Assembly (NCBI GenBank): GCA_951406725.2
Contig: OX597822.1
Location: 117,552,001-117,616,000 of the forward strand
Source: Octopus vulgaris
Lineage: Eukaryota
Length of the DNA stretch: 64,000 nt
Reading direction: 5' to 3'
The position numbers and the translations under genes were made by a program. The notes under the pieces are model-generated. The model saw only the letters and a program-made list of their open reading frames with translations. It was not told the DNA's origin and did no database searches. Shown here one piece after another: positions 28,805-60,590 of the stretch (positions are counted from its first letter, which is position 1; each line of letters opens with the position of its first letter).

Positions 28805-28910
28805 TATGAATGCTTATATTAGTACTTCTCTAATATTGAAGCTCAATTTTCAATGATGTTTTAAGATAAAAATAATTTTCTCGAGTTATTTTATATGTAA
28901 CAATTTATTA

Positions 28911-31382
28911 ATAACATAAGGGACTAAAGCCATCTGAATATGGCTAGGGACAGGGCAGGGTGGTGGGGGTGTTACTGTTGCATTTAGCCCCAGGCGAACA
29001 TCGACGTCACCAGAAAGGCTCGACACCGTCACGGTGCCCTTAACCTGCAAAGGGAGGTAATTCCCCGATGAAGCGGAAACCACACACGGACCATGGTTTC
29101 AAGGTGTATTTCCTATCGTCGGCGTGTGGTAGGCTTCCGCTTCCTCGACGAATCCTCACTCTGCAGGATATTCATATATAGATTTTCAAGCAAAATACAT
29201 TTGCTGATTTCGAAAATCTGTTCGAAAGCAATAATAATTCTCTAAAAGAGATATAGACAGTAACTGCTCGATAACATAAGGGACTAAAGCCATCTGAATA
29301 TGGCTAGGGACAGGGCAGGGTGGTGGGGGTGTTACTGTTGCATTTAGCCCCAGGCGAACATCGACGTCACCAGAAAGGCTCGACACCGTCACGGTGCCCT
29401 TAACCTGCAAAGGGAGGTAATTCCCCGATGAAGCGGAAACCACACACGGACCATGGTTTCAAGGTGTATTGCCTATCGTCGGCGTGTGGTAGGCTTCCGC
29501 TTCCTCGACGAATCCTCACTCTGCAGGATATTCATATATAGATTTTCAAGCAAAATACATTTGCTGATTTCGAAAATCTGTTCGAAAGCAATAATAATTC
29601 TCTAAAAGAGATATAGACAGTAACTGCTCGATAACATAAGGGACTAAAGCCATCTGAATATGGCTAGGGACAGGGCAGGGTGGTGGGGGTGTTACTGTTG
29701 CATTTAGCCCCAGGCGAACATCGACGTCACCAGAAAGGCTCGACACCGTCACGGTGCCCTTAACCTGCAAAGGGAGGTAATTCCCCGATGAAGCGGAAAC
29801 CACACACGGACCATGGTTTCAAGGTGTATTGCCTATCGTCGGCGTGTGGTAGGCTTCCGCTTCCTCGACGAATCCTCACTCTGCAGGATATTCATATATA
29901 GATTTTCAAGCAAAATACATTTGCTGATTTCGAAAATCTGTTCGAAAGCAATAATAATTCTCTAAAAGAGATATAGACAGTAACTGCTCGATAACATAAG
30001 GGACTAAAGCCATCTGAATATGGCTAGGGACAGGGCAGGGTGGTGGGGTGTTACTGTTGCATTTAGCCCCAGGCGAACATCGACGTCACCAGAAAGGCTC
30101 GACACCGTCACGGTGCCCTTAACCTGCAAAAGGAGGTAATTCCCCGATGAAGCGGAAACCACACACGGACCATGGTTTCAAGGTGTATTGCCTATCGTCG
30201 GCGTGTGGTAGGCTTCCGCTTCCTCGACGAATCCTCACTCTGCAGGATATTCATATATAGATTTTCAAGCAAAATACATTTGCTGATTTCGAAAATCTGT
30301 TCGAAAGCAATAATAATTCTCTAAAAGAGATATAGACAGTAACTGCTCGATTATATGAATATCCTGCAGAGTGAGGATTCGTCGAGGAAGCGGAAGCCTA
30401 CCACACGCCGACGATAGGCAATACACCTTGAAACCATGGTCCGTGTGTGGTTTCCGCTTCATCGGGGAATTACCTCCCTTTCCAGGTATAGGGCACCGTG
30501 ACGGTGTCGAGCCTTTCTGGTGACGTCGATGTTCGCCTGGGGCTAAATGCAACACTAACACCCCCACCACCCTGCCCTGTCCCTAGCCATATTCAGATGG
30601 CTTTAGTCCCTTATGTTATCGAGCAGTTACTGTCTATATCTCTTTTAGAGAATTATTATTGCTTTCGAACAGATTTTCGAAATCAGCAAATGTATTTTGC
30701 TTGAAAATCTATATATGAATATCCTGCAGAGTGAGGATTCGTCGAGGAAGCGGAAGCCTACCACACGCCGACGATAGGCAATACACCTTGAAACCATGGT
30801 CCGTGTGTGGTTTCCGCTTCATCGGGGAATTACCTCCCTTTGCAGGTTAAGGGCACCGTGACGGTGTCGAGCCTTTCTGGTGACGTCGATGTTCGCCTGG
30901 GGCTAAATGCAACAGTAACACCCCCACCACCCTGCCCTGTCCCTAGCCATATTCAGATGGCTTTAGTCCCTTATGTTATCGAGCAGTTACTGTCTATATC
31001 TCTTTTGGTGAATTATTATTGCTTTCGAACAGATTTTCGAAATCAGCAAATGTATTTTGCTTGAAAATCTATATATGAATATCCTGCAGAGTGAGGATTC
31101 GTCGAGGAAGCGGAAGCCTACCACACGCCGACGATAGGCAATACACCTTGAAACCATGGTCCGTCTGTGGTTTCCGCTTCATCGGGGAATTACCTCCCTT
31201 TGCAGGTTAAGGGCACCGTGACGGTGTCGAGCCTTTCTGGTGACGTCGATGTTCGCCTGGGGCTAAATGCAACAGTAACACCCCCACCACCCTGCCCTGT
31301 CCCTAGCCATATTCAGATGGCTTTAGTCCCTTATGTTATCGAGCAGTTACTGTCTATATCTCTTTTAGAGAATTATTATTGC
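28911..31382. mobile_element. Inverted tandem array of a 360-bp structured non-coding unit with 13-bp TSD
   Basis: Left arm 28911-30351 (4.0 units), right arm 30352-31382 (2.86 units, opposite orientation); CAATTTATTAATA at 28901-28913 and 31382-31394. Confidence 0.9.
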
Positions 31383-33879
31383 AATTTATTAATATATTTC
31401 ATGAAATACCAATAAGGCAGTACACGAGACATACTTAAGTAAATGTTGAATGTTTTCATGCTACTCAGCTCTGACAGTGTACGCTAGACGCATGTTCTCT
31501 CGCCATTCAATAAGCTAAAGTAAAAATTGTGAACACATTTTATGTGACAAACAGGACAGTTTTAATTAAAGGTATCACTACTCAAGATAGGTAGCAGCAA
31601 TATTTCCAAATCTCAAATAATTAAATGGTTTCTACATACTGGAGTTCAGTTAATTATAAGTGAGATATGGCAAAAACATTAGCTCGTCGGCTAATATTAA
31701 ATCAATGTCTTTACAAGCGTGATGACAACGTGTAAAATTTAGTTAGTGTCTCAAAATACGAGATGCATTTGTGGAAAGAACTATGTCACCAAATTCTTTT
31801 CGCAAGCGTATCTCCTATTTTAAGATGTGCTCAGCCATAGCAAACTGGCTGGAGATCTTGTGTTAGTGTACGCTGTCTGTAATTGAAGAATTGGGGTAAA
31901 ACTCAACATTTGTTTTAACGCTTCGGATATACTGAAATGTAAATTGCTTACGACGGATCCTCTCAACATTTTAGAAACAACTAAATTATACATCTAATAA
32001 AAGGAAAGAACAAATTAGATAATATAGTCGTATATGTACTAAAAATATGTATAGTCATACGTAGAATATCTCTGATATCGATCAGAATTGATTTAAAGTG
32101 AAGCAGTGACCTCAACGAAGTCGTTAATGAAATTAAAGAAATCATGAATATTGTCTTTTCACGTGGCCCTTACACCTTGGATTTCGCGCTGTCACTGATC
32201 CAAAGGGTTTATTGCAATGAAATATGTCTAAAAGAAAATACACTGCATTAAAAATATAAGAAAACGTTAGACGAAGACATTTTTATTGTATCTCAACATA
32301 ATTATCGTTGTTTGGTTTCTCAAGTAGAAATGAATCAACCATAGTGAATATATTTGATCTCATGTCTATTAAAAAAAAAACTATTTCTGTTTATACTCCT
32401 AGTACTAGTCTAATTAAAAAGTATTAAATTTAATTAATGCAACGTTACAAATCGCTGTCGAAACTCAAAACTTTTTATGAGCTAATAGCTTTTAAGACGC
32501 TTTTAAGGTCACAGTAACATACGGAGTGTTCTGCTGGGAAATTATACAGATAATGATCAACTTTATAGACACAACTAGGCCTCAAAACCACAATTAGTCT
32601 CATTCGATTTCATCTAATTTAAAGAGAAAAATTAATGTGGTGTTTGTTCGGTTTAATACACGAGTTATTTTTCAATTTCAAAGAAAACTCAGTCAAGTTA
32701 CCACATCTCACTTTGAAATAAAAGCCTTGAAAGCCTATCGGCATCTTTGATGTATTCTCTTATAATGTTATAGTGAAGGTTTGATCTCAACTAGATATTG
32801 CTTTGCATGCAGAATAGTAAATGCAGTGTACAGATAATCAATATGTTGTATAAAAGTGAGTTTAACCGTCTGAAAAATTTGTTAGAAATATATAACGAAT
32901 CAGCTAACTATGTTTATACGTAACAACTTTGATAAGACTTTTTTATATAGTATTTTCTCTTTTTATATAGCCAGTGAGAAGTTTTAGAGATACGGTCATG
33001 AAAATAAGAAAAATATATATATAACGTTAAAATATGTAACTAATGAAACTATAACGACTGAAAATATGCATTTTCAGATAAAGATTTAAAAAATATATCG
33101 TCAAGTTTTGGAATACACATGGGTACACATAAACACATATACAGGGACACACGTAAAAGTATAAAGTGAGCTTAAATTTGGTTATTTTTGGCAATAAAGA
33201 AACAAAGTGGTAATGAGTATTCATGTTGTTCCTGATCTCATAAAATACTTTAATGGTGAATATAAAATGAACAGGATTCAATTAAGAATCATAACTTAAA
33301 CTCGGGTTTTTGGGTACTTCTCGCTTGCTCTATCACGTTTACAAAATGCACTAAATACCAAATACAAACACACATACCGACACATAGACACTCACTATAT
33401 TCCTTTAGTCACCTAAATATTATTCTCTTAGTAATATTGATTTCATAAGATAGGATTTGGATGGAAGCTGAGTCATTGAGGGATGGAGAGCAAAGTGAAC
33501 CCGGATGGAATTTGAGCTTAAAATACAAAAGGCTGTACTAAATACCGAAAGGTATATTGTCGGACATTCTATTGATACTGATTCTACCATCCACTGCTCT
33601 TTTTATGAGATCGGTTTAGTAGTGCACAAAATACCTTGTGCTATCTAGCAACGTCCCTTTATGTTATGGGTAGAAAATCTCCAACCCTATACGACTTCGC
33701 CTTTGATCCTCTCAGTGCTGTTAAAATAATCCTGGAATCTATATTATTTACTAAAATCCCTCTCCCAAAACTATGGTCTTGTCTCTGTGTTATATCTTTT
33801 CTATTTGTACCAAAAAGAAAAGTAAGATATTTAAATATAAAATGTTAAAATCAGCATTTATAAGGATCACGCCCCACTC

Positions 33880-40160: not shown

Positions 40161-40176
40161 GGCGAAATTTCCCCAA

Positions 40177-40601: not shown

Positions 40602-41134
40602 GCATATACACACGTATACGTCAGAGTAAGAAGAGAAATACTCGTGCATGAGTTCCAGTAAGAACACAGACATATATACATTAAACCTTTTAAACAAACA
40701 CTCAGACGCACGCGTCTCAAAAGACTCAAACATCCATCGGACTACATAAAGAAAATTCTCAATAAAACAACCGGGAAAAACCCTTATCTCACAATTCCTA
40801 CATGCCATTATAGTAACACAGGAAGTTGCTTCTATTCATTTCTTCAAAATTAACCTACGCAGACGGGATGAATAGAATTTTAAATCGCATTGCAGGAACA
40901 GCCATGGTGTGACTAATTTAAAAGCCATAACATAAAATTGAGTAACCAGCTATTAGTAGTAATAAAATATTCATATATATGGCATAAAAAAAATTAACAT
41001 TGAGTTATCTTTGCTTTATATTCCTCTTAACCACTATCAATATTCTCATTAATATCTAGCGCCCTTTCTGCATTTTATGCATGACAACTACATCAAGAAA
41101 TACCAAGAGAATCAAAATTCGGTATTAGGATAAA

Positions 41135-41238
41135 ACGACAGTTACTGAGCAACAGACGACTACTCAAAAGTTTCTATTAAATACACAAAGTTAACAGCGC
41201 TTTCCAGAAATATAGCCATACATACATACATACATACA

Positions 41239-41269
<31 letters not shown>

Positions 41270-41575
41270 TTTACGACTAGCTACTTTGCTTGTTGCAAAT
41301 CAGTGACCGATGGTTGCTTTTTTTTCTATATATTGCTTGCTGGAGCGGACTCTGGCCATCTCTCTAGCGACCGGGTTTTCGCGATTGAGAACGAGTAAAT
41401 TAGCTCAAAACAGAGTCGGTCTCGCGATCCCGTCGTCTGCTGGAGGGTAGAAGAGATTCACTCCCCTGCTTGCAATATATACAGGGTGCAAGCTGCTCCT
41501 ATAACCAGTTAGTGGAAGACCTGCCTGGGGTTACACATCAGTAACATTGATAACATTGAAGGGCCATATTGATGC
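41135..41575 (+). mobile_element. Diverged single-copy relative of the 360-bp structured unit
   Basis: Same motif order: CAGTTACTG, AAATCAG..TTGCTT..TCTATATA, long rod hairpin, short hairpin, GCCTGGGG(C/T)TA, CAGTAACA, GCCATATT. Confidence 0.6.
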
Positions 41576-41592
41576 GGATATTAAATTTACTA

Positions 41593-41642
<50 letters not shown>

Positions 41643-41653
41643 TCTTTATTTAG

Positions 41654-41709
<56 letters not shown>

Positions 41710-41714
<5 letters not shown>

Positions 41715-42195
41715 GATATAGTGTATATTTATACACATAAGGAATCCACTTAACATGAATTCAACACATTAGAAAGAACAGCTAGGTTCTGTAAACCACA
41801 AAAATAACGGATAAAATTCGACAGGAATAAATTTGGAAATGAAAAACATTTACCATCTAGTACCCTGGACCAATTGGTTTCTGATCATCTTTTAACGAGT
41901 CAGGGGGAACTCACAAGGTCTGATCTTCTTCAGCAAGGTCCAACCTAGGGTTAAACATATCCAACAGGAGACAAACAAGATCAGACCTTGTGAGTTCCCC
42001 CTGACTCGCTAAAAGATGATCAGAAACCAATTTGGTCCAGGGTACTAGATGGTAAATGTTTTTCATTTCCAAATTTATTCCTGTCGAATTTTATCCGTTA
42101 TTTTTGTGGTTTACAGAACCTAGCTGTTCTTTCTAATGTGTTGAATTCACGTTAAGTGGATTCCTTATGTGTATAAATATACACTATATCGTATA
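41710..42195. repeat. Near-perfect inverted repeat, ~218-bp arms, ~49-bp spacer (Penelope-like)
   Basis: 41710-41927 vs 41977-42195 with only a few differences. Confidence 0.92.
41862..41939 (-). ncRNA. Type I hammerhead ribozyme, intact core
   Basis: ACCTTG-CTGAAGA-A GATCA..TGATC A-GAAA-CCAATTGG-TC-CAGGGT. Confidence 0.8.
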
Positions 42196-59935: not shown

Positions 59936-60491
59936 AGGCCATGGATTGGCGTAATCATTAACATATCGGACACAATCCCTCACAGTGTTTGCTCAGACAA
60001 ATCTTTGTATTCAGAATTCTTTGATGGTAGTTATAACCCGTTAACCGGATTGATACCACCGCCAAGTTCTTGGGTGCTTTTAGCGGAATTCGGGCTAGGT
60101 GTCCGGTTTCGGGAATGACAACTCCACTTTAATATCAGAGATCCTGAAAAATGAGGGGACATGACCGTTGTCCTTTCATTCCTCAGACAACTCTAAGTAT
60201 ACTCTTCTTTCATATGTTGAATAGTTTCGTTCAATGGTGCAGAGTAAAATGTGCTGCAGAAATAAATAAAAATGAAAGTTAATGTTATATGAAGGCCTTT
60301 GATGAAGCATTTTTCCACAGTGTCTTTTCTTGTGTAAGCGGAACAGTTTTAACTAGAAATGTAAAAATATCATGCTTTAACATGTTCATTGATATTAATT
60401 TCTTCAATAATTCATTTTAGCTTAAACTTAAATTAAAATAATAACTATTATTAAATCTCAGAATGAGATGTAAACAGTAATCGCTCGATAA

Positions 60492-60590
60492 TGTAAAGTA
60501 TAGAAGCCATCTTAGAAGCCACAGTAGAGCTACAGTAACACCCCCTCCCCTATGTGGTTAGCCATATTAAGATGGCTTCTATACTTTACA
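60492..60590. repeat. Short inverted repeat / possible MITE
   Basis: TGTAAAGTATAGAAGCCATCTTA vs TAAGATGGCTTCTATACTTTACA (23 bp perfect). Confidence 0.7.

Follow-up and report, generated by a model that had tools for sequence, protein, structure and literature searches.

A decayed, probable retrozyme copy in a microsatellite of Octopus vulgaris and the covarying 3' fold of its repeat family

Does a lone, diverged relative of a tandemly repeated 360-nt unit in the octopus genome preserve an RNA pseudoknot through a compensatory base-pair change? The question was raised for positions 41135-41575 of a 64,000-nt stretch of Octopus vulgaris DNA (assembly GCA_951406725.2, contig OX597822.1, positions 117,552,001 to 117,616,000), hereafter the window. 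The original prediction treated this segment as one ~440-nt copy of an unknown pseudoknotted RNA, starting in about the same register as the left arm of the array and joining its two ends through helix P2, in which an A-T pair had become T-A. Our analysis led to a different answer. It is highly probable that the element spans 41268-41594 and is a 5'-truncated, decayed copy, predicted to be inactive, of an old repeat family with hammerheads (a non-LTR retrozyme); the reverse transcriptase (RT) and endonuclease of a Penelope-like element likely carried out its insertion into a TA-rich microsatellite. The class of element is already known, the window copy is an ordinary decayed insertion, and the fold at the level of the family is the useful, testable detail.

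The features of the copy, its flanks and its relatives in the window are listed in Table 1. The family-B profile (nhmmer, 25 loci) matched the window at 41268-41365 and 41453-41597 only and found nothing further upstream, and a copy start and register at 41135 were therefore not borne out. The window copy was 79% identical to a natural B unit over 249 nt (BLAST), and mapping the ends of family B insertions placed its 3' end within the first 3'-end cluster of that family. The copy stops at about 41594, ahead of its own P2 3' strand. The (CATA)n tract, which had been taken to interrupt the copy, merely borders it, and the P1 3' strand reported as missing was present, in decayed form, at 41581-41590. 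The P2 5' strand is followed by a 9-nt tandem duplication (41542-41559). A near-perfect foldback with arms of ~220 nt that are 97-98% complementary (41710-42195) comes directly after the (TA)n tract at the 3' junction of the copy and is either MITE-like or a second head-to-head insertion.

Table 1. Positions in the window of the decayed copy, its flanks and related insertions.
Positions	Strand	Feature	Basis
28911..30351	-	Subfamily A array, young, left arm of 4 units with its 3' end at position 82 of the unit	
30352..31382	+	Subfamily A array, young, right arm of 2.9 units with its 3' end at position 125 of the unit	
30402..30447	+	Type I hammerhead of the array unit; U4C-variant core CCGACGA, stem III palindrome CCATGG, GUC site	
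41135..41216	.	Flank with GTTACTGA, outside the element	Genome search, profile, shuffles
41217..41268	.	(CATA)n microsatellite, 5' junction	
41268..41594	+	5'-truncated subfamily B monomer, ~327 nt of the ~355-nt unit	nhmmer, BLAST, end map
41297..41303	+	AAATCAG, U2-promoter-like motif, putative snRNA-type promoter element; overlaps hairpin 41302-41318	
41379..41427	+	Type I hammerhead remnant, predicted inactive	Alignment of 20 B copies
41502..41533	+	Conserved stem P0: TAACC/GGTTA, 4x3 internal loop, inner hairpin	
41538..41545	+	P2 5' strand, altered here: TCAGTAAC where the family has GTAGTAAC; 3' partner outside the copy	
41563..41578	+	GCCATATT hairpin (P3), decayed	
41594..41733	.	(TA)n microsatellite, 3' junction, typical target	
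60449..60590	.	Short head-to-head insertion, subfamily C	

The motifs on which the compensatory swap was built were all found where they had been reported, including GTTACTGA at 41141-41148 and TCAGTAAC at 41538-41545. An exact 8-bp complement does exist, CAGTTACTG is a 9-nt match to the array, and subfamilies A and B can both be drawn with a long P1-like helix; these observations speak for a single, pseudoknotted copy at 41135-41575. We nevertheless consider that reading very improbable. Its 5' part, 41135-41216, had no homology to any tested subfamily. A genome search that skipped very common words matched 40960-41216 to itself alone, and when 41100-41216 was compared with seven subfamily sequences, 84-474 of 500 shuffles scored at least as high. 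The 8-mer GTTACTGA occurred at a chance rate (3 in the window, 2.54 expected) and stands ~120 nt upstream of the TTTTACAAC-like motif, whereas the P2 partner of the family, GTTACTAC, lies downstream of GCCATATT, 16-30 nt before that motif, a spacing matched in 19 of 25 loci. The TC found at 41538-9 of the window copy was present in none of the 25 B loci. With no homology of the flank to the tested subfamilies, an 8-mer at chance frequency and no TC among the 25 B loci, the swap reading fails. The apparent swap is an alteration of this copy paired with what is likely a chance 8-mer in the flank, and the reported finding was largely an artefact on a decayed copy. The other helix of the proposed pseudoknot fared no better. 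The long P1 helix can be drawn in A and B only, the register common to all subfamilies had two-sided changes at 0 of 5 pairs, G stands opposite G in that register in young E/F copies, and the 5' strand assigned to P1 covaries with a strand upstream of it. Accordingly, these repeats should no longer be taken for a new pseudoknotted RNA.

The helix TCGCGA/TCGCGA, formerly read as part of a rod, is the overlooked stem I of a type I hammerhead and places the family among the known non-LTR retrozymes. In the alignment of 20 B copies, CUGANGA was conserved in 12, GAAA in 13 and GUC in 17, and all three were present in eight. The window copy has the core TTGAGAA (U3-A8) and a GUC site, and AAAA in place of GAAA removes G12. 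Subfamilies A, C, D/E and H also carry hammerheads (cores CCGACGA, UUGACAA, CUGAUGA and UUGAUAA, respectively) whose stem sequences differ and whose stem III is short and palindromic or near-palindromic. The cut site lies 96-111 nt before a TGG(G/A)G motif in A, B, C and H. The 3-8 pair was C3-G8, U3-A8 or U3-G8 across the subfamilies examined, and the retention of the stems and of this pair through different sequences implies selection on the hammerhead fold. PLE-type hammerheads may work as dimers (PMC4209133). Two published results speak against the cleavage step: a U4C core, as in young subfamily A, lowers activity in vitro (PMC3088659), and only one of nine Xenopus retrozyme dimers was cleaved in vitro (bioRxiv 10.64898/2026.07.22.740005).

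Rfam gave no match at gathering scores in the window, and its matches at E<=5 in the array and the regions of the finding included no ribozyme family, nor did those of a subfamily C copy at E<=10; these hammerheads are simply missed by Rfam. A strict hammerhead descriptor detected subfamily C only and missed the Neptune positive control, and the remaining hammerheads were found by relaxed scans. Twister and HDV-like descriptors had zero matches on the sense strand. Resemblances to hatchet, pistol, 7SK and group I intron RNAs were considered as leads and dropped. Three minimal hammerhead motifs in the window, at 40176 (+), 37977 (-) and 51640 (+), are unrelated to the 360-nt family; two of them are similar, lie on opposite strands 2.2 kb apart and face outward, and this pair probably marks the ends of a PLE-type insertion. 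Two of four contig runs contain a contig of 390 nt (unit plus 30), which is as compatible with tandem DNA or RNA as with a circle and was given no weight as evidence.

A search of the 2.8-Gb assembly with 41270-41590 gave at least 47 dispersed matches (40 scored of 864 candidates), of which the long ones were 74-85% identical. Alignment showed that the family B unit is circularly permuted and ~355 nt long. Subfamily B occurs as monomers and partial dimers of up to about 500 nt and subfamily A as multimers. The family is thus found in partial tandems and inversions. Unit lengths across the family were 354-362 nt, and the units are non-coding. ARAGORN detected no tRNA genes in the window, and the units have no tRNA-derived head. 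Two patterns of shared motifs had 3,172 and 6,514 exact genomic matches and none in reversed controls, and pattern searches brought out further subfamilies.

The 360-nt unit to which the window copy had been likened is that of the subfamily A array (28911-31382), whose two arms are head-to-head; a 13-bp direct repeat (28901-28913 and 31382-31394) overlaps the ends of the array. The kinship held at the level of the family, since a profile made without B rows detected 11 of 26 B segments at E<0.01 and none of 25 reversed controls. It did not hold by direct alignment: BLAST gave no A-B match, the window copy and the array unit aligned with a score of 30 (shuffled mean 24-25, maximum 43-45), and the 11 segments did not include the window copy itself. 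The structure model, trained on A-G rows, found the young subfamily H, which was absent from the training set, at E=0.007. The broader suggestion of an older, diversified family defined by RNA structure was upheld, as P2 changes on both sides between subfamilies.

Several other arrangements of these repeats were observed. A different dispersed repeat with ~520 candidates (loci L111-L122, e.g., L113:1640-1730) contains a retrozyme-core fragment of ~80 nt; these loci were set aside as another repeat. At L185-L191 (G000 C1:11168356-11169115), the retrozyme 3' tail and (TA)n together form a 119-bp tandem array, in which a truncated insertion has been amplified locally. A single head-to-head insertion of subfamily D with common flanks was found in about ten places on one chromosome (L124-L132 and L135; G000 C28) and reflects segmental duplication of host DNA. 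Subfamilies F and A2 lie side by side in one TA tract at L172:1500-1900.

The ends of the insertions link the family to Penelope-like elements (PLEs). Of 40 distinct A arms, 19 end at unit position 74-83 and 21 at 122-128, and their 5' ends are scattered. Arms of subfamily H ended at 72-73 (6 of 24) or 129-133 (15 of 24), with a query that favours the second end. Arms of subfamily B ended at 52-62 (24 of 64), at 100-120 (13 of 64) or elsewhere (27 of 64), the loci having been chosen in part by a query that ends at the first 3'-end cluster. The arms of A, B and H are head-to-head (inverted) and 5'-truncated; 35 of the 40 A arms and 26 of the 64 B arms run into microsatellite, and the A tracts are TA repeats. 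Published PLE insertions consist of tandems or inverted 5'-truncated arms, carry a tail on one end and lie in (TA)n targets (PMC8557442), and the tail was shown in vitro to be the stretch between two internal RT starts (PMC11167929). The two stops ~45 nt apart, found in 40 of 40 A arms, are the Penelope tail signature. The window copy appears to have used the first start point, which accounts for the missing P2 3' strand, and to have decayed since.

Elements with RT and GIY-YIG domains, many with 781-aa frames, are present in the genome. Their terminal repeats contain minimal hammerheads of the U3-A8 type that share core and stem III with subfamily H, and the likeness to the hammerheads of the GIY-YIG loci was limited to the core of that subfamily. 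No autonomous element with the shared 3' fold was found in 40 GIY-YIG loci (30 plus 10 extended stretches), a sample that consists mostly of one Neptune-type family. The structure model had three matches in these loci, all of which were stand-alone retrozyme copies. The five core motifs had no matching element among the Naiad/Hydra consensus sequences of the PMC8557442 supplement. We infer a Penelope-type driver by class. Loci L101-L109 represent a young Neptune-type PLE of ~5.2 kb, with copies up to 99% identical, a coiled-coil-like open reading frame (no Pfam match) upstream of the RT-GIY-YIG frame and a U3-A8 hammerhead-like motif near the 3' end.

The conserved 3' domain folds into helices other than those of the original prediction. 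The strand GGGG(C/T)TA, once assigned to P1, covaries with the upstream strand TA(G/A)C(C/T), and folding also pairs the two (P0). Over 18 distinct rows drawn from B, C, D, E and H, 6 of 10 P0 pairs changed on both sides, for instance from G-C to A-U (B) and from C-G to U-A (H); 3 of 500 shuffles reached this count. The P0 covariation score was 0.423, compared with 0.219 for shuffles and at most 0.199 for slid controls. Subfamily A is outside this count, its upstream helix being misaligned in alignment A1, and folds the same way; alignment A4 was excluded, with two misaligned rows.

The P2 helix of family B is GTAGTAAC/GTTACTAC, and 20 of 25 loci pair at seven or more of the eight positions; the 5' strand starts with GT in 21 loci and the 3' strand ends with AC in 19. 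The original prediction raised the question whether P1, P2 and P3 covary. Covariation was detected in P2, where two-sided changes affect 3 of 8 pairs (in B, A-U to G-C and C-G to U-A; in D/E, A-U to G-C), but not in P1, and P3, like P4, was mostly invariant. Two more P2 pairs appear by eye to have changed in H. The P2 covariation score (0.208) exceeded all shuffles (0.161), and in alignment A3 the number of two-sided pairs was not above chance (4, compared with 4.8 in shuffles). Covariation here reflects few lineage events, and kinship alone can exceed shuffles. P0 and P2 contain G-U pairs that are valid on the sense strand only. Folding z-scores were -2.06 for the window copy and -4.0 for the array unit; those of the 3' domain alone ranged from +0.62 to -2.67 on the sense strand, and in C, E and H the antisense strand reached values at least as low. 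Predicted folding energy alone thus gives weak support to the 3' fold. The fold spans the two 3' ends and its P2 3' strand falls within the tail, suggesting that RT recognition is its most likely role.

The unit also contains a promoter-like motif. The sequence AT(C/T)AGT was found at -57 to -61 in 13 of 15 U2 loci, representing three promoter types, and in none of 12 U6 loci. With a matrix built from the U2 sites, the AAATCAG position was the best sense match in five of five subfamily units, and background matches occurred at 7e-5 to 1.5e-3 per position. Given the relatedness of the units and a matrix built on six distinct sites, an snRNA-type promoter inside the unit is a lead drawn from motif similarity. 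An internal snRNA-type Pol II promoter has a precedent in newt satellite 2 (as cited in PMC2220036). AAATCAG is the second-best matrix match in the window copy. The best is the altered stretch before P2 (41532-41543), which has a 12-nt identity to the commonest U2 upstream element that is probably coincidental.

These features can be arranged into a candidate cycle. The putative snRNA-type promoter in one unit would drive transcription into the next unit, and the hammerheads, with their short, near-palindromic stem III, would cleave in dimeric form to release unit-length RNA. By analogy with other retrozymes, this RNA may circularise. A Penelope-type enzyme would then recognise the folded 3' domain, comprising P0, P2, P3 and the flanking hairpins, make nicks in the two strands of AT-rich DNA and begin copying from two fixed points ~45-60 nt apart. 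The expected product is head-to-head arms of random length, and such arms and fixed ends were observed.

Two other explanations of the data were weighed against this cycle. The repeats may have been mobilised by PLE enzymes as linear, multimeric read-through templates, with a vestigial hammerhead and neither cutting nor circles. PLE insertion in vitro was indifferent to hammerhead mutants (PMC11167929), which leaves cleavage and circles as possibly dispensable steps. The family that spread most recently, A, combines a U4C core with a non-canonical 10.1-11.1 pair, and non-autonomous PLEs of the Chlamys clade, described as lacking canonical hammerheads, form head-to-tail arrays (PMC8557442). Set against this are the hammerhead stems and 3-8 pair retained through different sequences in all subfamilies examined, and we regard a vestigial hammerhead as unlikely. 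Somewhat less likely again is that the conserved 3' motifs are mainly promoter elements acting at the DNA level, or remnants of recent descent, and form no RT-recognition fold. The resemblance of AAATCAG to the U2 upstream element would fit such an origin, as would the invariance of most of P3 and P4 and the weak folding z-scores. It does not readily explain the two-sided changes in P0 and P2, the G-U pairs that hold on one strand or the detection of subfamily H by a structure model that had not been trained on it.

A bolder, tentative reading, to which we give slightly less than even weight, is that subfamilies, some of which cannot be aligned by BLAST, keep P0 (with its conserved AGCU/UGG internal loop), P2, P3 and P4 across both RT starts as a template-recognition handle for a Penelope-type RT. 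Together with the snRNA-type promoter and the hammerhead, this handle would make the 355-nt unit a minimal self-transcribing parasite. For PLE enzymes, the starts and the minimal RNA length have been mapped and a binding motif has been hypothesised (PMC11167929). The set of subfamilies may matter for understanding how Penelope-type enzymes choose an RNA and start at two internal points, as covariation across at least five subfamilies points to specific helices at the RT starts and provides natural break-and-rescue mutants. No description of octopus retrozymes or of such a fold was found among the openly available papers listed in our literature searches.

Among known systems, HDV-like ribozymes are superficially similar in the order of their parts: a G-rich strand, a helix strand, a hairpin, a pyrimidine strand and a partner strand. 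HDV-like ribozymes form a nested double pseudoknot (P1, P1.1, P2 and P3) with a catalytic C. An HDV-like identity was rejected for the octopus units, which have no P1.1, no catalytic C in J4/2, a P2-P3 gap of 8-26 nt and no conserved P1; an HDV-like descriptor, run with no positive control, had no matches in units A, B and C. Newt satellite 2 carries a hammerhead. Like the octopus units, it is a tandem repeat with a promoter-like element in the unit (PMC2220036), whereas the putative octopus promoter is a motif match to the U2 upstream regions of this genome.

PLEs and their pLTR hammerheads (PMC4209133, PMC8557442, PMC11167929) share with the octopus units a short palindromic stem III, the U3-A8 core variant and, in subfamily B, an extra nucleotide before stem II. 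Tandem and inverted insertions, a tail between two RT starts and AT-rich or (TA)n targets are common to both. The octopus units differ from the PLEs in those accounts in having no open reading frame and a tail of ~44 nt (A) to 60 nt (H), compared with the 30-40 nt described. Their hammerhead lies ~175-240 nt upstream of the starts, whereas that of the local Neptune-type element is near the 3' ends. Metazoan non-LTR retrozymes (PMC7229834; bioRxiv 10.64898/2026.07.22.740005) are likewise non-coding tandem units of ~350 nt (~350-390 bp in mussels; PMC7229834) with one type I hammerhead each, lack an LTR, a PBS and a tRNA head, and co-occur with PLEs. The Xenopus families have pLTR homology to an autonomous PLE, and no such homology was found for the octopus units among the 40 GIY-YIG loci. 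Compared with the retrozyme descriptions consulted, the octopus units make the PLE scars explicit, with head-to-head arms, two 3' ends and TA targets, and at least five of their subfamilies share a covarying 3' fold.
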